Source: Nitrospirota bacterium
GTDB taxonomy: Bacteria > Nitrospirota > UBA9217
DNA: 64,000 nt
Direction of reading: 5' to 3'
Assembly (NCBI GenBank): GCA_963737155.1
Contig: CAVTRN010000002.1
Coordinates: 2,784,001-2,848,000 of the forward strand
Part shown: in pieces, positions 2,825 through 38,515 of the stretch
Position numbering within the stretch: the stretch's first letter is position 1
How the letters are laid out: every line of letters begins with the position of its first letter
Notes under the pieces: model-generated
Told to the model about the DNA's origin: nothing
The model's input: the letters and a program-made list of their open reading frames with translations, nothing else
Databases searched by the model: none
Made by a program: the position numbers and the translations under genes

Positions 2825-3233
2825 AAATACATTATATCATATAAAATTATATTATACAATATAAATATAAACAGTATTCTACCCTATGAAAGCATTCGAC
2901 AACCAGAAGGCTGACACCATCGTTGTAGAGAATTTGGCGCCGGAGCTCTCATCGGGCTCAACCAGATGGGCATTCGGGGTCATCGTTCCCGGGCAGCAAC
3001 AACCGGGAGAATATCACGATGATTGCCTCGCAAAGCATCCCCAGGTCGACACCCCGAGTCTGCTGTGGTGGACACTGCAAAGATGGTGGGTGTGCTCACT
3101 AACCTTTAGATGGCTGGCAGTATTGATGATCTCGCGAAAAAAACGGGTGAGTTACCCTTGTTGTCAGTAATGCTTGTAGAGCATCGTGCATTTCAGTATG
3201 ATTTCGTAATCACGTTTCACATAATAAGGAGAA

Positions 3234-3569
3234 ATGGACATGTCACTTCTAAATCAAGCTCGTGGGTACATTTATGTTTATGATATCCTTAGGCAACGGA
3301 AGGAAGACCCTTTCTGCCGGACTTGCAGCGCTTACAACAATACCATCACGGCGATACGTGAATCCCTCGCCAACTTCGAAAGCCAACTCGCCATTGACGA
3401 GAAGATACTGCCCGCTGAGTTCTCTCATCTTTTTTCCCAAGCCAGAGCCGGAATCGCTTCCCTGAAAATGCCGGAAAATCCGACAGGCCAGAAAAAAGCG
3501 GGCAACTGCAAACTGCCGGAAGGCGTTTGTTTCGTCAAATTGTCCTATATGATTTTTCAAAAACTCTGA
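3234..3569 (+). CDS. hypothetical Cys-containing protein (possible metal binder)
   Basis: Strong RBS AAGGAG; FCRTCSAY and GNCKLPEGVC motifs. Confidence 0.65.
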   Translation: MDMSLLNQARGYIYVYDILRQRKEDPFCRTCSAYNNTITAIRESLANFESQLAIDEKILPAEFSHLFSQARAGIASLKMPENPTGQKKAGNCKLPEGVCFVKLSYMIFQKL

Positions 3570-3611
3570 CTCGTTTTTTATACAAGCCCCAAACTTGAGC
3601 CGACCAACAGG

Positions 3612-3950
3612 ATGGATACAGGATCAGATTTACCGCCATTTTAGAAATGCCTGACAACTTCATGCCGACGTATACAAAACCTTTTCAAGGCCCAAAAGAC
3701 TGATGATCCTCAAAATTCTGAAGGCAGGCAAACTGTCGCCCTTCGACTTCATGAAAGAACCTGGCATGAAGGAAAACACGTCGCGGCGTCTGGCACTGAC
3801 GCGCCTTATTGGCATCCAGAGAACCCAGGGAGATGGCACCAAGATACATATATTACCGAATGGAGATTGATAATTTCTTCCCTGCCTGCGGACCAAAGAT
3901 TCCCGAATTAGCATCTCGTTCTATGAAAGTTTGCTGATTCTGTTGGCAGC
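3612..3950 (+). pseudogene. ArsR/SmtB transcriptional regulator relic (boundaries approximate)
   Basis: Reading QLHADVYKTFSRPKRLMILKILKAGKLS...GIQRTQGDGTKI / YYRM resembles an ArsR wHTH; frameshifted. Confidence 0.6.
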
Positions 3951-4737
3951 AGCAGGATGTTTTTTTTCGCGTTTAAGGTAGACGTCTTCCGGGATACTGA
4001 ATCGCACTTTGGAAAAGCGACGGTTGCCCTAGATAGCATTTTGCCTGAGTGTCGCGAAAGGTCGGATTTCTATCTGAAACCAAACGGTCTGGCTTTTATA
4101 GCTTTTTTATTTACGGAGAGCAAGCCAAGATTTATATGACTGCCAAAGCAATCCAGTGCTGCCTGAGCTCTTCGTGAGTGCAACCGAAACGACCACAGGA
4201 GCATTATTGCTTAAAAGCGACATCAAGGTCGAGTCGGTGGGTATCTTGCCGGCGGTTCTTCAATTTTCTTTAGTGTACCCCATGGTTGCATACCAGCGCT
4301 TTGTTGCAGAAAATGCAAGCAAACTAACTAAAGCGCTCAAAGAGGGGAATCGAAAATCCTCTTTTTTTGCGGCAGCGGCGCAGCTATGGAACACCGATAA
4401 GATAAAGACAACGGACTCACTCCTTTCCAGGGACATCGACCCCACCTTCTTGCTTGATCAACGAATTGAAGCCAAGTATCCACAAAAGGACTACCATCGG
4501 ATGGAAGTGGGGAAAATTAATAAATGCCTGTTTCACAAATTTTGGAACAACAGCCGGCCGCCGATGCTGTCCGGAGTCCGGCATCAACGCGCGAACCCTG
4601 TCCCACGAACAACATCAAGGCTCCATCCTACTTTTGTCTTTTTTAGGGGAATCGCCAAAATTTTAAAAAGTGAAAAGACGATAGTCGTCCCCTTTCTTGG
4701 CTCCTAAAAAATATTGCAACTGGATAAATTTAGTGCC

Positions 4738-4765
4738 TTGACACTGCGATATTCTTTGATACAAT
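4738..4765 (+). promoter_or_regulatory. sigma70-type promoter for the cytochrome operon (probably leaderless)
   Basis: TTGACA-16 nt-TACAAT with TG extended -10; ATG starts 7 nt downstream; no SD. Confidence 0.6.
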
Positions 4766-4771
4766 GTAGGC

Positions 4772-5755
4772 ATGCGAGAACCTTCTATCAAATCCCTCAT
4801 TCTGCTTTCACTTCTCATGGTATTCTTATCCCCTACAGTTGTTGTGTCGATGGAAAACTGTTATGACTGCCACGGGACAAAAGGCATGAAGGATTATATA
4901 GACCGTACTCTTTTTGAGCAATCCGTACATATGTTCCTGACCTGCGATAAGTGCCATATAGATGTGACCACAATTCCTCATGGTAAAGTTGCCAAGGTTC
5001 ATTGTGGCATCTGCCATTTCCTCGGGAGGGAGGGTGCTCCGAAGGAACAGGCCTCGGAATACAAGCTGAGCGTCCACGGCCGTGCGACTGCGGCGGGAAA
5101 TATGGCGGCGCCGACCTGCCAAACCTGTCATGGTTCTCATTATATCTATCCTTCTGCTGATGCGAGATCAGAGACAAACAGGTGGAAGATACCTTCACTC
5201 TGTTCCCAGTGTCATCTTCAGGAGTTCGAGGTTTATAAGGGAAGTATTCACGGAAAGGAGCTTCTGGACGATCATAAAACGGCCGCACCCACCTGCTTTG
5301 ATTGCCACCAAGAGCATATGACGCCGCCTACCGCGAGCAACCAGTGGCAGCTGTCGCTGATCAAAGAATGCGGGATGTGCCATTCCGCGGAAATGCAAAC
5401 CTACCGGGAAACTATTCACGGCAAGATTACCGAACTTGGCTATGCAACGGTGGCAAAGTGCTCGGACTGCCACGGATCACACAATATTCAGCCGCCCGAC
5501 AATCCTCAGTCGACCGTCTCGCAGCAGAACATCCTAAGTACTTGCAGAAAGTGTCATCCAGACGCCACGGTCGGTTTCACGAAATACTATGCCCATGGAG
5601 AGAAAAGTAACAAAGCAAAATACCCCCTACTCTACTATACGTATCTCTTCATGACGATACTCCTTATCGGCGTGTTCGCATTCTTCTTCACTCACACGTT
5701 CCTCTGGGCTTACCGCTCGATGAAAGAACGACTACATAAAAAGGGAGGCGAGTAA
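4772..5755 (+). CDS. nonaheme c-type cytochrome with signal peptide and C-terminal TM helix (CbcL-like c domain)
   Basis: 9 CxxCH: CYDCH, CDKCH, CGICH, CQTCH, CSQCH, CFDCH, CGMCH, CSDCH, CRKCH. Confidence 0.92.
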   Translation: MREPSIKSLILLSLLMVFLSPTVVVSMENCYDCHGTKGMKDYIDRTLFEQSVHMFLTCDKCHIDVTTIPHGKVAKVHCGICHFLGREGAPKEQASEYKLSVHGRATAAGNMAAPTCQTCHGSHYIYPSADARSETNRWKIPSLCSQCHLQEFEVYKGSIHGKELLDDHKTAAPTCFDCHQEHMTPPTASNQWQLSLIKECGMCHSAEMQTYRETIHGKITELGYATVAKCSDCHGSHNIQPPDNPQSTVSQQNILSTCRKCHPDATVGFTKYYAHGEKSNKAKYPLLYYTYLFMTILLIGVFAFFFTHTFLWAYRSMKERLHKKGGE

Positions 5756-5756
5756 C

Positions 5757-6572
5757 ATGGTATTGATAAAAAGGTTAAACGCCTACCATCGAATCCTCCA
5801 CATTACCATGGCTGTGAGTTTTATCGGGCTCGTTGCCTCCGGAATGCCACTCAAGTACGCCGGAGCTCCCTGGGCAGCATGGCTTATGAAACTGCTTGGC
5901 GGATACCATGCAGCCGGTGTCATCCACCGGACATGCGCCGTCATCACTTTCGGATATTTTGCGGCCCATATCGGTTACGTGCTGTATTACATCGCAATCG
6001 TCAGAAAATTCAGGTTTAACGTCCTCGGGCCGGAATCCATGGTTCCATGGATCAAGGATCTCACGGATATTTACGCCAGTTTCCGATGGTTTCTCGGTTT
6101 CGGCCCCCGGCCCCAATTTGACAGGTGGGCCTATTGGGAAAAATTCGATTACTGGGCCGTGTTCTGGGGCGTCGGCATGATTGGCGTTTCGGGCCTTTTT
6201 CTTTGGTTCCCCGAGTTTTTCGGCCGCTTTGTCCCGGGGTGGGCATTCAATATAGCAACGGTCATCCACAGCGATGAAGCACTCCTTGCAGCCGGTTTCA
6301 TTTTCACAATTCATTATTTCAATACCCATCTGCGGCCAGAGAAGTTCCCCATGGATCCAGTTATCTTTACCGGAACGCTCTCGCTCCAGGAATTACAGCA
6401 TGAGCGGCCCCTCGAATACCAACGTCTTACCGAGGCACACCGAATCGAACAGACTACGACCACGCCCCAAGCATCGTGGTTGACCAATACCGGCATCATC
6501 TTCGGCTTCCTTTTGGTGCTGAGCGGTTTTTTACTGCTCATCCTGATTATTATGGGTCAGTTCATCTACTGA
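5757..6572 (+). CDS. cytochrome b (FdnI/HydC-like), CbcL-like membrane domain
   Basis: HRILH...SGMPLKY; IHRTCAV; YWEKFDYWAVFWG; IHSDEALLA..FIFTIHYFNTHLRPEKFPMD. Confidence 0.9.
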   Translation: MVLIKRLNAYHRILHITMAVSFIGLVASGMPLKYAGAPWAAWLMKLLGGYHAAGVIHRTCAVITFGYFAAHIGYVLYYIAIVRKFRFNVLGPESMVPWIKDLTDIYASFRWFLGFGPRPQFDRWAYWEKFDYWAVFWGVGMIGVSGLFLWFPEFFGRFVPGWAFNIATVIHSDEALLAAGFIFTIHYFNTHLRPEKFPMDPVIFTGTLSLQELQHERPLEYQRLTEAHRIEQTTTTPQASWLTNTGIIFGFLLVLSGFLLLILIIMGQFIY

Positions 6573-6573
6573 T

Positions 6574-7281
6574 ATGTCATTAGCCCAACGGGATCTATTC
6601 ATAAAACATATATTCACGACCGTTGCCCCCTACGTCGATCTACTCAGCAGTGGCTTCAGCTTCGGGTTTGACCACTACTGGCGCAGACAGGCCATTCTGC
6701 TGTCTGGGATCGCTGAAGGAGACCGGGTGCTCGATGTCTGCACGGGTACCGGCGAACTGGCCATCCCCCTCGCCAAAAAAGTCGGGGACAAGGGGTCGGT
6801 AACTGGCGCCGATTTCTGTGAGGAAATGCTCATGCATGCCCGCAGAAAAACCGGCGCACGGTATAAAAATCTGTCCTTTCTCCTGTCCGATGCCAAAAGG
6901 CTCCCCTTCCGTGACAATACATTCGATGCCGTCACTGTTGCTTTCGGTATGCGAAACATCCCCGACACCTCACTGGCACTGCAGGAAATCAAGCGCGTGT
7001 TGAAACCGGGTGGGAAATTCATGTGCCTCGAACTCACTCGGCCCAAGGGAAACTGGTTCCGCACTGTTTATGAATGGTACGTCTTCCGGATCATGCCCCT
7101 GATCGGGAAAATGGTCGTCAAGACCTCCGCACCCTATCTCTACCTCCCCCGCTCCATTAATGCCTTTTATCCACCTACCGAGTTCCGATACATCATCGCC
7201 GAATCTGGGTACAAGAATGTAACTGTGGATTCCCTCACCATGGGAATCGCCACCATTTACCGGGCGGTAAAAAATGGATAA
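6574..7281 (+). CDS. ubiE: UbiE/MenG-family quinone C-methyltransferase
   Basis: LSFGFDHYWR-like, VLDVCTGTGE, LPFRDNTFDAVTVAFGMRN, Y.YLPRSI. Confidence 0.85.
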   Translation: MSLAQRDLFIKHIFTTVAPYVDLLSSGFSFGFDHYWRRQAILLSGIAEGDRVLDVCTGTGELAIPLAKKVGDKGSVTGADFCEEMLMHARRKTGARYKNLSFLLSDAKRLPFRDNTFDAVTVAFGMRNIPDTSLALQEIKRVLKPGGKFMCLELTRPKGNWFRTVYEWYVFRIMPLIGKMVVKTSAPYLYLPRSINAFYPPTEFRYIIAESGYKNVTVDSLTMGIATIYRAVKNG

Positions 7282-7921
7282 GGTAGCCATCCTATGCGAT
7301 AGGGACAGGATTCTGATGGAGCACTTTTCCCACCAAAGCCTGGACCGCATGAGCAACCACACAACGCTGCTCGGTTCACTCCCTTTTTTTTCGACCTATC
7401 AGAACGCGAACGTGAAAAAAGAAGTGGACAAAGACCGGCTCATCATCATGGAGGTGGCTGAGGCCTTTGAATCGGGAAAACCCGTGTGCGATATCGATCT
7501 TGAAGAAATTTTCGAGAATACGAAGGAAGTGGACAGGGGGTTTTTGAATAAACTCACGATCGCCCCATTTACCCTCTCGGTTCGTTATAGTGATTTTGCC
7601 GACATCCGCATTCAGCGCATTTGGCTCATTGCAAAAGCCGTTTACGCGCTGCTCGCGCACTGGCCGGAAGGTGCGTCATTCATAAATGCCGTAAGATATG
7701 CCTATTCGGAGAAAAAATTCAAGGATATCCTTGATGAAATCCTGCACCTGTACAACGAGGAAACGAGGATGCTGAGTAAATCCATACGGCACCTCGGGCC
7801 CTTCAGGCCGGCGGTGAGCGCCTATACCGATGCACTTTACCAAGCCATGGAAGAAGTGAAAGAAGAAATCACCGTGTCCGCCGTACGACGCATTTTTGGA
7901 GATAAAACAGTCTATGCCTAA
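7274..7921 (+). CDS. hypothetical protein, translationally coupled within the operon
   Basis: 215-aa ORF overlapping both neighbours. Confidence 0.7.
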   Translation: MDKVAILCDRDRILMEHFSHQSLDRMSNHTTLLGSLPFFSTYQNANVKKEVDKDRLIIMEVAEAFESGKPVCDIDLEEIFENTKEVDRGFLNKLTIAPFTLSVRYSDFADIRIQRIWLIAKAVYALLAHWPEGASFINAVRYAYSEKKFKDILDEILHLYNEETRMLSKSIRHLGPFRPAVSAYTDALYQAMEEVKEEITVSAVRRIFGDKTVYA

Positions 7922-9668
7922 ACCCGACCTGATGTTGCTCCATGCGCCGAGCGTCTTCAAATTCCGCGAGTTGCCGCTCTTCTTCGGCCCCGTGAGCGAT
8001 GTGGTTCCCTCTTCATCGATCTTCGAGATCTACCCGATTGGGTTCCTTACTATATCAGACTATCTAACTCGACACGGGATCTCCGTGAGGATCATGAACC
8101 TGGCGCTCAGAATGCTGCGCTCCCGATCATTTGATCCTGAGCGCTGCGTCAAGAACATGAATGCAACCGCCTTCGGCATCGACCTGCACTGGCTGCCCCA
8201 TGTCGACGGCAGTCTGAGTCTTGCCGAGCTTGTGAAAAAACATCATCCCGACAAACCAGTCATCCTCGGTGGCCTCAGCGCTACCTATTATCACGAAGAG
8301 ATCATGCGGGACTATCCCTTTGTAAATTTCGTCCTGTGTGGGGAATCGACAGAGGAACCGCTGCGAATGCTAATGGAGGCGATACGCGCGGGATCGGGTT
8401 ACGAGAACGTCCCGAACCTCGTCTGGAGAGACGAGAGTGGCCGCATGGTGAAGAACGAGTGGTCGTTCAAGCCAGAAAACCTCGACTATGTCGACTTTGA
8501 CTACTCACATCTTCTGAAGATGGCGATCAAGTACCGCGATCCGTCGGGGTATATCCCCTTCAAGTACTGGCTCAGCTACCCCGTAACGGCGGTTTTCTCC
8601 GTTCGTGGCTGCAACCACAACTGCGGAACCTGCGGCGGTTCAATATCCGCGTTCCGCACGGTCAGCGGGAGGTCACACGCCTGTTTTCGGTCTCCCGAGC
8701 GCGTGGCCAATGATATCCGGCGGATTGCCGATTATACCGGCGCTCCCGTCCTCGTTCTCGGCGATCTGCTCCAAGCCGGCCGCGCGTACAGCGATCGCTT
8801 TCTAGCTGCCGTCAAAAAATACCGCATAAAGAACGAAATCTGCGTCGAGTTCTTCAGCCCGCCTCCCGTCGAATTTCTGGAAAAAGTGGCCGGCTCCATT
8901 GAAACCTTCAACGTCGAAATCTCGCCGGAATCACATGACCTCAATATCCGGAAGATCTTCGGGAAAAACTATGACAATGCAGCGCTCGAAGATATGATTC
9001 GCACACTCCTTCGCGTAGGCTGCAGGCGGATCGACCTCTTCTTCATGGTCGGCCTACCGAACCAGACCTACCAATCCGTCATGGATACCGTCGCTTACTG
9101 TGGAGAGCTATTGGAAAAATACGGCAGCAACGGCAGGGTTCTCCCCTTGATCGCGCCGCTCGCTCCGTTCATCGATCCCGGCAGCGTTATCTTCGAGGAT
9201 CCCGGGAAATACGGCTACCGGTTTTTTTATAAGACACTCAAGGAACATAGGCAGGCCATGCTCAAACCGAGCTGGAAATTCGCGCTGAACTACGAAACTC
9301 AGTGGATGACGCGGGATGATATTGTTAGAGCCACATATGACGGAGCCCTGAAACTCCTCGCCATCAAGGAGCAGCACGGCGTAATCGGGCAGCATAACGC
9401 TCTGAAGATCCGGGACCATCTGGAACGTGCGGTCAAACTGAGCGAGAAGATTAGCAATCCGGAATATGTGGACGAGGCACTCAGGAAAGAAATTTTCAAA
9501 CTCAACACCCTAGACATCGTCTGCGGCAAGCATGAACTCGATTGGCCCATCAAGGGTTGGAAGCTGAACGTGCCAAATACCATGAAGCTCCTGGCCTCCG
9601 AAATCCACCGGGACATGAGGTCTCGAATTCCCTTTTTCCCCTTCCTGCCCGGCAAGCCAGATGTCTGA
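7914..9668 (+). CDS. B12-binding domain/radical SAM protein (resembles TIGR04190 family)
   Basis: LLHAPSV..FGPVSDVVPSS..FEIYPIGF; FGIDLHWLPH; CxxxCxxC (RGCNHNCGTC); PLAPFIDPGS. Confidence 0.85.
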   Translation: MPKPDLMLLHAPSVFKFRELPLFFGPVSDVVPSSSIFEIYPIGFLTISDYLTRHGISVRIMNLALRMLRSRSFDPERCVKNMNATAFGIDLHWLPHVDGSLSLAELVKKHHPDKPVILGGLSATYYHEEIMRDYPFVNFVLCGESTEEPLRMLMEAIRAGSGYENVPNLVWRDESGRMVKNEWSFKPENLDYVDFDYSHLLKMAIKYRDPSGYIPFKYWLSYPVTAVFSVRGCNHNCGTCGGSISAFRTVSGRSHACFRSPERVANDIRRIADYTGAPVLVLGDLLQAGRAYSDRFLAAVKKYRIKNEICVEFFSPPPVEFLEKVAGSIETFNVEISPESHDLNIRKIFGKNYDNAALEDMIRTLLRVGCRRIDLFFMVGLPNQTYQSVMDTVAYCGELLEKYGSNGRVLPLIAPLAPFIDPGSVIFEDPGKYGYRFFYKTLKEHRQAMLKPSWKFALNYETQWMTRDDIVRATYDGALKLLAIKEQHGVIGQHNALKIRDHLERAVKLSEKISNPEYVDEALRKEIFKLNTLDIVCGKHELDWPIKGWKLNVPNTMKLLASEIHRDMRSRIPFFPFLPGKPDV

Positions 9669-9678
9669 TAAAGCCGAC

Positions 9679-9717
9679 AAAAAAGGGTGAACCTGCCCTA
9701 GCTGGTTCATCCTTTTT
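9679..9717 (+). terminator. intrinsic terminator, probably bidirectional
   Basis: AAAAAAGGGTGAACC...GGTTCATCCTTTTT hairpin directly after the rSAM stop. Confidence 0.7.
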
Positions 9718-10786: not shown

Positions 10787-11440
10787 CTACTTCAATATTT
10801 CTCCCGTCGCGCGAGACCACAGTAGAAGGTCCAGATGGTCCATATCGATGCCGATCTCCCCGGCGAACTGCCGAAGCTTCTTCTCAATGGCAAGATAACC
10901 CGTGCGGCCAGTAGGACGCATCTGCTTCGAAATCACACCCAGTTCACGGAGGCTATTCAGTATATGCTTATCCAGGATGGCATATCCCGGATACCCGATG
11001 TTCCGGAGAAAGTGGCTTGCCTCTTTATAGCCGAGCCCTTTGATCGATTTGTTCTGTGCCAGGAAGTCTCGTCTTGCGTCGGAAGAATCGAACGAGTCCA
11101 GCAAAACGCGAAGTTTCATCCCGCAGGCGTCCTTCAGGTATTCTCGTGTCTGAACGATATAGGAAGGCCGAAGGTGCCAGAATCGCACACGATGCGCCTG
11201 CGCGCGTTCCTGCAGTTCTCTCTCACTGCCGGTATGGAGAATATCTTTCAACGCTTCAACAGTACGCATCCCCATCTTCGCACTGCTGCCGGCCGTTAGG
11301 ATGCAATAGCAGAGTTCCTCGAAGATAATCCGGTCACCTTTGCTGGAAACAGCCTTGAATTCGGCGAGGCGCTTTACGATGCGCGGTTTTTTCCCCCGGT
11401 AGTCTCTTTTCAACTCACGGATGAATTCTTTTCCAGGCAT
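10787..11440 (-). CDS. ogg: 8-oxoguanine DNA glycosylase/AP lyase (thermophile/archaeal-type Ogg)
   Basis: FEELCYCILTA; IKGLGYKEASHFLRNIG; AILDKHIL; LDLLLW...TGEILK. Confidence 0.9.
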   Translation of the reverse strand: MPGKEFIRELKRDYRGKKPRIVKRLAEFKAVSSKGDRIIFEELCYCILTAGSSAKMGMRTVEALKDILHTGSERELQERAQAHRVRFWHLRPSYIVQTREYLKDACGMKLRVLLDSFDSSDARRDFLAQNKSIKGLGYKEASHFLRNIGYPGYAILDKHILNSLRELGVISKQMRPTGRTGYLAIEKKLRQFAGEIGIDMDHLDLLLWSRATGEILK

Positions 11441-11786
11441 TATAACCGCCCTTCAAATTATAAAGGTTCTTGTAGCCCATGCCCATTAGTCGTTTGATGG
11501 CCCAAATGCTCTGGTTCCCGTTCTGGCAGTAGACAACCAACTCCTTGTCCTTCTTCAGCTTTTTTACCTTATCACCGATTTCCGAAAGCTGCACATGCAC
11601 CGACCCGGGGATGTGCCCCTGCTCATACTCCTTGTCGGTCCGGACGTCGAGAATCACGATACCTCTTTTCTGGTCAAGCTTCTGTGCGGGAAGCTGTTTA
11701 ATCCCCACCCGGCTCAGGACACCGAAAATTCTATAGATGAGGTAGAGAGCAATGATAGAGAGCAGTATTGTTGATGCTGTGTCCAA
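11415..11786 (-). CDS. rhodanese-like protein with N-terminal membrane anchor
   Basis: ILDVRT..EYEQGHIPGS; VVYCQNGNQS; NLKGG. Confidence 0.88.
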   Translation of the reverse strand: MDTASTILLSIIALYLIYRIFGVLSRVGIKQLPAQKLDQKRGIVILDVRTDKEYEQGHIPGSVHVQLSEIGDKVKKLKKDKELVVYCQNGNQSIWAIKRLMGMGYKNLYNLKGGYNAWKRIHP

Positions 11787-37400: not shown

Positions 37401-38515
37401 TTAATCGTCTCATAATAGTATTAACACTAATTATGCCGCATACTTTGTTGTTTCGTTATTAAAGTAAGCGCGCACACGATCAGGAGACTTTTGGATAAAC
37501 CTCAAATGACTGACTACTGCACCATGTAATTGTTCCGGTGAACTAATTGCCTGACGACCAACTGCATTGTTCTTCAGGTCATTCCAGACTCTCTCATCGG
37601 GATTCAGCTCTGGAGAATACGGCGGTAAAAAGAACAGACGAAACTTTTCCTTAATGGTTTCAATATAGTTAGAAACCTTGCGAGACTTGTGTGACGGATG
37701 ACCATCAACGATGAGAAATATCATCCGTTTGCTGCCTTGAATAAGCCGCTTTATGAATTCAATAAATTGCTGCGACGCTACGCGACCTTTGACTACCATG
37801 AACCTAAATTCGCCTTGTGCACTAACAGCCGAAATCATATTCAATCCGAAGCGCGCTCCTGTGCTGCTCACAATCGGGGTCTCACCCTTCATGGCCCAAG
37901 TGGTGCCCGCATGATGATCAGAGCGAACGCCAGCTTCATCTCCAAAGAAGATTTGAGCCTTCATGCGACGCGCCATGCTTCGTATCCGAGGATACTCCTT
38001 CTCCAGCCACTCCTGAACCGCTGCCGGCTTTTGCTGATAGGCACGCCAAACAGGACGCTGTGGAGTCAATCCCAACTGTCCCAGCAAACGACAAACGGAT
38101 GCTTTGCTCAATCTCATACCAAATCGCTTATATATTACCTGCCCAATGATCTTCGCTGTCCACAGGGCATAGGTAAACTTCAACTGAAGCGGATTTTTCG
38201 TGGTCACAGTACGATAAACCCATTCTATAGCCTTAGCATCCATTTTTGGCGGGCGACCGCCTCGTTTGTTGGCATCAAGAGCACCCCAGCCCCCGTTTCG
38301 ATATCGTGCCAACCAGCCATAGATGGTGACGCGATTTATACCCAGGGCTTTGGCCACCAGTTCGGGGCTTTGTCCTTCCTGGACACTATTTACCGCACGC
38401 TTTCTGAGCTCAGTCAGAGTTTTATGGTCAAGATTTCTCGCATCTGCTTTTTTCTTCATGAAAATAACTATACCACAGATGCAAGATTATGTCAATACTA
38501 TTATGAGACGGTTAA
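37401..38515 (-). mobile_element. IS630-family IS, intact
   Basis: 26-bp TIRs (24/26 match) at 37401-37426 and 38490-38515, flanked by duplicated TA. Confidence 0.93.
37431..38459 (-). CDS. IS630 transposase
   Basis: HTH; FFGDEAG; IVDGHPSH; LPPYSPELNPDERVW. Confidence 0.95.
   Translation of the reverse strand: MKKKADARNLDHKTLTELRKRAVNSVQEGQSPELVAKALGINRVTIYGWLARYRNGGWGALDANKRGGRPPKMDAKAIEWVYRTVTTKNPLQLKFTYALWTAKIIGQVIYKRFGMRLSKASVCRLLGQLGLTPQRPVWRAYQQKPAAVQEWLEKEYPRIRSMARRMKAQIFFGDEAGVRSDHHAGTTWAMKGETPIVSSTGARFGLNMISAVSAQGEFRFMVVKGRVASQQFIEFIKRLIQGSKRMIFLIVDGHPSHKSRKVSNYIETIKEKFRLFFLPPYSPELNPDERVWNDLKNNAVGRQAISSPEQLHGAVVSHLRFIQKSPDRVRAYFNNETTKYAA

Follow-up and report, generated by a model that had tools for sequence, protein, structure and literature searches.

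A window of 64,000 nucleotides from the genome of a Nitrospirota bacterium (assembly GCA_963737155.1, contig CAVTRN010000002.1, positions 2,784,001 to 2,848,000) carries, between its positions 4772 and 9668, five head-to-tail open reading frames (ORFs) on the + strand. In the ORF listing these encode a nine-haem cytochrome c, a membrane cytochrome b, a UbiE/MenG methyltransferase, an orphan protein of 215 amino acids (aa) and a cobalamin (B12)-binding radical S-adenosylmethionine (SAM) enzyme. The last belongs to TIGR04190, a catalogued and uncharacterised family for which gene context provides strong genomic evidence of a menaquinone tailoring role. We consider it probable that menaquinone is, in one way or another, the substrate of this enzyme, and cobalamin-dependent C-methylation would be the most likely reaction. 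The whole proposal, in which the operon joins a menaquinol-oxidising module with the finishing of menaquinone and in which genes 4 and 5 methylate this quinone further at carbon, has in our estimate an even chance of being right. The potential of the quinone decides which electron acceptors anaerobes can use. To our knowledge, methylated menaquinones serve low-potential respiration and their only known synthases are radical SAM enzymes of class C.

The radical SAM enzyme is encoded by gene 5 (7896-9668, + strand; 590 aa if counted from the TTG at 7896). It is a full member of NCBIfam TIGR04190 (B12_SAM_Ta0216), with 639.7 bits against a cut-off of 500 over profile positions 1-512 of 554, and a search of the whole genome scored it at 639.2 bits and found the family in single copy. 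Translation probably starts at ATG 7914, which is preceded by GGAG at 7899-7902 and would give a product of 584 aa. The Pfam scan returned a B12-binding domain (PF02310, 42.5 bits, cut-off 32.1, residues 43-153) followed by a Radical_SAM domain (PF04055, 44.8 bits, residues 236-401), and no HemN_C domain. A CX3CX2C motif at C233, C237 and C240 (numbered from 7914) is invariant in 36 aligned members of the family. By domain order and by this motif the enzyme is assigned to class B, the cobalamin-dependent radical SAM enzymes. Most class B enzymes transfer methyl groups to carbon or phosphorus. The closest named families, all weakly matched (35-47 bits), are the methylases HpnR, KedN5 and P-methyltransferases, together with BzaD, HpnJ and BchE, so that non-methylases figure among them. 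Only one cysteine besides the triad is invariant in the 36 members, and a second, auxiliary Fe-S cluster is therefore not expected. The first-pass annotation had envisaged a methylthiolated quinone as one possible product of the operon; lacking conserved cysteines for a second cluster, the family makes this product unlikely.

A comparison with sequences of the Protein Data Bank (PDB) matched gene 5 to no solved structure. Nothing in the control genome of Sulfolobus acidocaldarius exceeded the TIGR04190 cut-off, and the identification of gene 5 with Grs or Cgm was rejected on this ground. According to the available part of a recent preprint, Cgm was characterised in S. acidocaldarius, which also makes ring-bearing glycerol dialkyl glycerol tetraethers (bioRxiv 10.1101/2025.10.20.683597). 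In the literature, judged partly from titles and the first lines of abstracts, we found no paper on the TIGR04190/Ta0216 family or on a class B radical SAM enzyme of quinones. Articles on thermoplasmaquinone and methionaquinone, judged from titles and the first lines of abstracts, reported no biosynthetic genes for these compounds.

The link between this orphan family and menaquinone genes, proposed from the window alone, extends well beyond the window genome. Among the best 150 representatives at 50% identity, two proteins (P0127, 826 aa; P0154, 893 aa) consist of a TIGR04190-type enzyme with a complete UbiE domain after it. Seven clusters formed at 90% identity share this architecture; their proteins measure 771-858 aa, lie on contigs of up to 208 kb and are 47-100% identical to residues 480-826 of P0127, the part used as query. 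Two of the seven clusters are named by their source as metagenome-assembled genomes (MAGs) of Actinobacteria or Candidatus Aquicultor, and the naming of the taxon rests on these two. In the remaining UbiE fusions found by the junction search the partner was a polyprenyl synthase, UbiD or a chorismate-binding (MenF-type) domain; UbiE thus commonly joins enzymes of the pathway to which it belongs.

Adjacency points in the same direction. In Chloroflexota, where TIGR04190 was present in 14 of 301 sampled genomes, a MenA-like prenyltransferase directly adjoins the TIGR04190 gene at two loci (L054, L055); its top NCBIfam matches, below their cut-offs, are all 1,4-dihydroxy-2-naphthoate prenyltransferases. 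A MenA-like gene adjoins TIGR04190 in 6 of 14 further Chloroflexota regions; in two of these six, a UbiE-like gene stands between them. Thermoplasmatota carry the family in 46 of 251 sampled genomes. In a complete genome of 1.56 Mb from this phylum (L104), the TIGR04190 gene is flanked on one side by MqnC (440.7 bits, cut-off 428.1) and on the other by an MqnC/E-like gene and MqnA/D, while in 4 of 20 Thermoplasmatota regions it is adjoined by a polyprenyl synthase and a geranylgeranyl-reductase-like gene. Two loci of the Thermodesulfovibrionales (L032, L035) have the order UbiB-like, orphan, radical SAM, small protein, UbiE, UbiB-like. The only one of 301 Acidobacteriota genomes with the family was the seed genome. 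One genome has just a handful of menaquinone-pathway genes. The occurrence of four families of this pathway beside TIGR04190 in four phyla, together with a conserved fusion, is thus hard to explain by chance adjacency.

Genes of quinone-using respiration also recur in the neighbourhood. The neighbour Pfam scans covered the loci other than L059, L060 and L062 (arranged as L058), L063, L064, L075, and two short contigs, L026 and L045. In Thermoplasmatota, a UppS-type prenyltransferase overlaps or abuts the TIGR04190 gene at L113, L116 and L119, with nuo genes 1-3 kb away; at L057 and L058 (by arrangement also L059, L060 and L062) the gene is divergent from a nuo operon, and L105 and L106 have no related neighbour genes. 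A fused CbcL-like gene, together with genes for a NapC-like protein and a cytochrome c, lies upstream on the same strand at L072, a locus of a second phylum, and the expectation that CbcL-like genes would recur beside this family is thereby borne out. Other neighbours are NapC/NirT (L065), a NiFe hydrogenase with an OmcA/MtrC-like gene (L066), MtrB with a multihaem MtrA-like gene (L067), hydrogenase genes (L061, L074) and, directly downstream, an FdnI-like cytochrome b (L039). In total, 13 of the 28 Pfam-annotated loci without the orphan gene have a neighbour involved in quinone synthesis or in quinone-using respiration. Five loci from Syntrophaceae-type MAGs (L044, L046, L047, L050, L051) display a fixed row of a UshA-like (seleno)protein, the radical SAM enzyme, selA, rluD and a yfiH-like gene, with no obvious link to quinones. 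Two TIGR04190 paralogues lie at L040:7255-11822, and an ArsA/Get3-type ATPase adjoins the gene both there and at L041:3254-5868.

Within the Nitrospirota, the conservation of the operon was followed in 67 loci, fetched from one-genome-per-species contigs with the radical SAM protein as query. The five-gene order is intact in 25 of them, all of Nitrospirota type (one record is labelled Betaproteobacteria) and all with a radical SAM protein at least about 58% identical to that of the window. A shorter unit of UbiE, orphan and radical SAM genes was found at L038, where it is kept without cytochromes, and at L020, whose contig is cut short; L028 and L036 have just the orphan and radical SAM genes. 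The linkage is graded: it is tightest between the orphan and radical SAM genes, looser with UbiE and loosest with the cytochromes. The first-pass annotation had suggested a search for co-occurrence of the radical SAM family with ubiE and CbcL-like genes; the full five-gene linkage proved to be limited to one Nitrospirota family, and what spans other phyla is the association of the radical SAM gene with menaquinone genes. At L036, a remnant of cytochrome c (7136-7366, 78 bits) lies directly upstream of the orphan and radical SAM genes, UbiE and the remainder of the two cytochrome genes having been lost; a geranylgeranyl reductase family gene is found 1 kb upstream, and downstream are the same Ogg and rhodanese genes as at window positions 10787-11786.

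The distribution of TIGR04190 among 60 relatives is that of an accessory and patchy gene in this Nitrospirota family, not of an essential one: 20 of the 36 relatives from the same family have it, and it is missing from all 24 that represent eleven other families of the phylum. In three genomes of the same family without TIGR04190 (G024, G025, G018), the orthologous UbiE, 56-63% identical, is located elsewhere, adjoining FAD-oxidoreductase and PF0610-like genes and no cytochrome pair. In one of them (L087:9473-10942, on G018:C14), a different B12-binding radical SAM protein of 490 aa is convergent to UbiE; it scores 100 bits for the B12-binding domain, 89 bits for Radical_SAM and just 27 bits against the window enzyme. 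Two further genomes of the family, G006 (97% complete) and G020 (100%), have MqnA/D and neither TIGR04190 nor UbiE (window query, E <= 1e-20). Their assemblies are fragmented, so that the cassette may sit in a gap, or the organisms may use demethylmenaquinone, and we draw no conclusion from them.

Gene 3 (6574-7281, + strand, 235 aa) exceeds the curated cut-offs for a demethylmenaquinone C-methyltransferase, with 232.8 bits for TIGR01934 (cut-off 158.35) and 229.4 bits for NF001244 (cut-off 216). It falls short of MpqE, the methyl-plastoquinone methyltransferase of Nitrospirota, for which it reaches 223.4 bits against the NF052510 cut-off of 335. The window genome (4.84 Mb, two contigs, 100% complete, with Nitrospirota MAGs as nearest relatives) has two MqnA/D genes and two UbiA-family genes, from which the futalosine route to menaquinone is deduced. 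Its only HemN_C gene lies away from the operon (C2:1828340). The operon UbiE is the sole strong PF01209 match in this genome (207 bits). A second housekeeping menG elsewhere was sought and rejected: the runner-up match is partial (61 bits), and the one other full-length UbiE match is weak, at 49 bits against the MenG cut-off of 158. Because this complete genome has no other gene of MenG grade, the operon copy is by its sequence assigned as the housekeeping MenG, performing the normal final reaction of menaquinone synthesis. The first-pass annotation had taken it as an extra quinone modifier belonging to the cassette and had called for a search for a separate housekeeping menG; that search found none in the window genome, the operon copy does that job, and the idea of an extra modifier was mistaken.

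Gene 4 (7274-7921, + strand), the orphan, had no match in Pfam, NCBIfam or the ESM Atlas. An AlphaFold2 model, built on an alignment of 31 homologues, predicts a soluble bundle of seven helices (pLDDT 86.8, pTM 0.86). No convincing fold match was found for this model: the best Foldseek hit against the PDB had E = 0.13, and the best VIA-align Z of 6.7 is within the noise of generic helical bundles. The gene is present in 31 of the 67 fetched loci, each time directly upstream of the radical SAM gene, which it overlaps in Nitrospirota. In a metagenomic fragment (P0130), incomplete at both ends and merely suggestive, orphan-like and radical SAM parts stand in one frame.

Genes 1 and 2 form the cytochrome pair. 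The cytochrome c (4772-5755, + strand, 327 aa), with Cytochrome_C7 and c3 Pfam matches, begins with a hydrophobic, signal-like segment, carries nine CXXCH motifs between residues 30 and 262 and has, at its C-terminal end, a hydrophobic helix (residues 284-314) containing His308, as the first-pass annotation had described it. The FdnI/HydC-like membrane cytochrome b (5757-6572, + strand, 271 aa) matches its families weakly and below threshold, with 23.1 bits for Ni_hydr_CYTB (cut-off 30.1) and 30.7 bits for FdnI (cut-off 115.85). The annotation of the two as a split CbcL-like oxidoreductase is supported by a fused c-b protein of 637 aa from a Thermoanaerobaculia MAG of the Acidobacteriota (L072:4115-6025), which is colinear with both. 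Its residues 29-411 align with the window cytochrome c, membrane helix included, at 28-30% identity, and its residues 415-620 with 219 residues of the cytochrome b at 28%; the cytochrome b histidines at positions 15, 57, 71, 171 and 186 align to histidines of the fused protein, whose own Ni_hydr_CYTB score is 55.2. In the window the two ORFs are separate (stop codon 5753-5755, start 5757), and the same split is found in all 25 five-gene loci. The pair would thus be a split form of the fused nine-haem-c/dihaem-b architecture of CbcL type.

In Geobacter sulfurreducens, CbcL associates a six-helix dihaem b domain with nine c haems and is required for acceptors below about -100 mV, according to the available part of PMC9129911. 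The window module shares with it the nine CXXCH motifs, the membrane helix after the c domain and the FdnI-like b domain, in the same order as in the fused Acidobacteriota protein. It differs in consisting of two genes 1 nt apart, whereas CbcL is a single c-b polypeptide, and in having a b subunit under the Pfam and NCBIfam cut-offs, which is likened to CbcL by architecture and not by the sequence of GSU0274. By analogy, the window pair may function with low-potential acceptors.

Taken together, the five genes suggest the following sequence of events. Menaquinol would be oxidised by the dihaem b subunit, and its electrons would pass through the nine-haem c subunit, anchored in the membrane, to the periplasm. 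MenG, from gene 3, would methylate demethylmenaquinone at C2. Genes 4 and 5 would constitute an accessory unit acting on menaquinone, whose further C-methylation, with substrate, methyl transfer and methylated position as gene context suggests them, would yield a methyl-menaquinone of lower potential; the 215-aa helical protein may be a partner or a subunit presenting the substrate. A tailoring role fits better than an essential step, since TIGR04190 is missing from genomes of the family and from close relatives that do have UbiE and Mqn genes. Methylation lowers the potential of a quinone. This effect, and the service of CbcL to low-potential acceptors, make a matching of the product to the CbcL-type oxidase attractive. 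The matching is only thinly suggested, by the operon in one family and by CbcL-like, NapC and Mtr neighbours in a few other lineages; at L038 and the Thermodesulfovibrionales loci the unit of UbiE, orphan and radical SAM genes occurs with no cytochromes. The original idea, a cassette making a modified quinone matched to its oxidoreductase, thus survives in its link to menaquinone, through the cross-phylum fusions and adjacencies, and loses both methylthiolation and UbiE as an extra modifier. We hold only tentatively, and with some doubt, the most complete version of the proposal, namely that TIGR04190 is the missing cobalamin-dependent enzyme of an orphan quinone modification, with a helical partner and on one transcript with a CbcL-type quinol oxidase.

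Radical SAM methylation of menaquinone has a known form. As the first-pass annotation had noted, the known methylmenaquinone synthases, MenK/MqnK (C8) and MenK2 (C7), are HemN-like enzymes of class C (Hein et al. 2017, 2018, in the available part of PMC10114718). The proposed likeness lies in a radical SAM modification of finished menaquinone in anaerobes, by a gene accompanying menaquinone genes, towards a quinone of lower potential. The window enzyme is nevertheless not homologous to them: with its N-terminal B12-binding domain and no HemN_C it would be an unrelated class B enzyme doing the job of class C MenK/MqnK, an activity suggested by context. Grs, Gmm, Cgm, Pgm and Ted share with TIGR04190 the B12-binding and radical SAM domains, a hydrophobic isoprenoid-bearing substrate (as proposed here) and an occurrence in Thermoplasmatota (bioRxiv 10.1101/2025.10.20.683597, part available). 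TIGR04190 is a separate family, widespread in bacteria, and its neighbours and fusion partners belong to the quinone pathway, not to tes or grs contexts. The HemN_C domain was absent from the five Thermoplasmatota genomes scoring highest for TIGR04190, which therefore have no candidate for a class C MenK/MqnK. The "Ta" tag in Ta0216 presumably designates Thermoplasma acidophilum. When anaerobic, T. acidophilum contains almost exclusively monomethylmenaquinone, according to the available part of PMC6770870.

Several observations weigh against the C-methylation of menaquinone by this family. Related genomes share ancestry, so that the tallies of loci are counts and not statistics and overstate the support. 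Fifteen of the 28 Pfam-annotated loci without the orphan have no quinone or respiratory neighbour, among them the five Syntrophaceae-type loci with selA and rluD and the two with an ArsA/Get3-like ATPase, and none of the seed genes sought was found in 8 of the 14 Chloroflexota regions or in most Thermoplasmatota regions. Two genomes (G061, G062) carry TIGR04190 with no strong UbiE match. The orphan profile, built from 31 homologues, found no relative beside distant members of the radical SAM family, so the orphan is not a general requirement of that family. Fusions to unrelated partners also exist, to TatC (P0124, 814 aa) and to PGA_cap/CapA-type domains (P0121 and P0122, 1060-1071 aa; the only two fused forms of at least 1023 aa, both PGA_cap), which may be real fusions or read-throughs of the gene call. 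We know of no methylmenaquinone reported for these uncultured Nitrospirota. BchE is one of the B12-radical SAM enzymes whose chemistry is not methylation. Others, such as Grs and Ted, cyclise, desaturate or rearrange their substrates (bioRxiv 10.1101/2025.10.20.683597, part available). In the archaea, a polyprenyl synthase with a geranylgeranyl reductase, or UppS (L113, L116, L119), would fit lipid or dolichol chemistry equally well.

These observations leave room for other substrates. The radical SAM enzyme might methylate, cyclise or desaturate the isoprenoid tail of menaquinone (in archaea, membrane lipids) instead of the ring. We consider this unlikely, though still deserving attention in view of the polyprenyl synthase and geranylgeranyl-reductase-like genes in 4 of 20 Thermoplasmatota regions, the UppS-type prenyltransferase at three loci and the geranylgeranyl reductase family gene at L036. 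Isoprenoid chains are what Grs, Cgm, Pgm and Ted work on (bioRxiv 10.1101/2025.10.20.683597), and the enzyme behind omega-cyclic menaquinone is described as unknown (bioRxiv 10.1101/2025.09.17.676790), both as given in the available parts of these preprints. However, UbiE, to which the family is fused, methylates the ring, the nearest partners in bacteria are the ring-side MenA, UbiE and MqnC, and S. acidocaldarius lacks an over-cut-off TIGR04190, so that the family is distinct from the B12-radical SAM lipid enzymes of that organism. Co-regulation or common descent could also account for the operon, if genes 4 and 5 acted on a non-quinone (lipid, cofactor or protein) needed in the same anaerobic respiration. 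The patchiness of the family, the unrelated neighbours in 15 of 28 loci, the selA context of the five Syntrophaceae-type loci, the restriction of the five-gene order to one family and the TatC and PGA_cap fusions would all agree with such a substrate. Yet the links with UbiE, MenA-like genes, MqnC with MqnA/D, and UbiB in four phyla are hard to ascribe to chance, and make it improbable in our estimate.

Maturation of the cytochrome module by genes 4 and 5, through modification of a haem or of a residue of the c or b subunit, is given very little credence. B12-radical SAM enzymes provide precedents in BchE, acting on tetrapyrroles, and Mmp10, acting on proteins, and multihaem or b-type cytochromes adjoin the family in Nitrospirota and at L039, L072, L065, L066 and L067. 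But most members have no cytochrome neighbour, L038 keeps the unit without cytochromes, and it is enzymes of quinone synthesis, not cytochromes, that the family is fused to in Actinobacteria and accompanied by in Chloroflexota and Thermoplasmatota. It is likewise very improbable that the enzyme makes methionaquinone (2-methylthio-naphthoquinone). The enzymes for this compound are stated to be unknown in the available part of bioRxiv 10.1101/2025.09.17.676790, and T. acidophilum, presumably tied to the family through the tag, makes methionaquinone aerobically (PMC6770870, part available). Against this stand the absence of a conserved cysteine for a sulfur-donating auxiliary cluster and the fact that methionaquinone lacks the C2 methyl, yet TIGR04190 is coupled and fused to the C2 methylase.

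If C-methylation of menaquinone by TIGR04190 were confirmed, it would constitute a second, unrelated and cobalamin-dependent route to methylated menaquinone. The TIGR04190 entry, of which the window protein is a full member, itself gives no function; the gene context described here proposes one, which would apply to the carriers of the gene: 46 of the 251 Thermoplasmatota and 14 of the 301 Chloroflexota sampled, as well as 20 of the 36 genomes from this Nitrospirota family. Candidate products would be methylmenaquinone, where class C MenK is absent (Thermoplasma-type archaea are an example), or an undescribed menaquinone modified in its ring or tail. Quinone tuning would become linked to modules that transfer electrons at low potential or out of the cell, and the cell would produce a low-potential quinone along with a dedicated outlet for its electrons. 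It would also improve the prediction of quinone types from genomes, which, according to the available part of a 2025 survey, cannot be relied on for methylated forms and cannot be done at all for several rare quinones (bioRxiv 10.1101/2025.09.17.676790).

On other aspects, the layout of the operon is compact, with spacings of 1 nt between genes 1 and 2 and between genes 2 and 3 and overlaps of 8 nt between genes 3 and 4 and between genes 4 and 5; the last would be 26 nt if the radical SAM gene started at TTG 7896. The description of five tightly coupled genes bounded by a promoter-like site and a terminator agrees with these coordinates and with the signals on both sides. A Sigma-70-like promoter (4738-4765, + strand) consists of TTGACA, a spacer of 16 nt and a TG-extended TACAAT, matching 11 of 12 positions in the promoter scan. 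Promoter-like sites are not enriched across the scanned region (8 seen, 8.9 expected from shuffles), and this one is consequently judged by its own quality alone. Its -10 element ends 6 nt ahead of the cytochrome c ATG with no Shine-Dalgarno sequence in between, so that a transcript from the predicted promoter would be leaderless; if the pair of elements is a true promoter, transcription would start at or beside this ATG.

Downstream, an intrinsic terminator is predicted from its folding energy at 9685-9717 (+ strand). Its 9-bp stem (9685-9693 and 9704-9712), which A/U pairs extend, encloses a 10-nt loop and is followed by TTTTT; at -23.9 kcal/mol (z = -5.4) it is equalled by none of 200 shuffles. 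The automated terminator scan overlooked this hairpin (9685-9712) because of the length of its loop.

Mobile elements are also present in the window. About 2 kb upstream of the operon, a serine recombinase with a Resolvase domain (2258-2824, - strand) overlaps a 562-aa ORF (583-2268) with no Pfam family, and the two (583-2824, - strand) resemble an IS607-type pair. Between this pair and the operon, positions 2886-4707 hold just short overlapping ORFs that matched no families. Further along, a DDE_3 transposase with helix-turn-helix domains at 37434-38459 (- strand) marks an insertion sequence.

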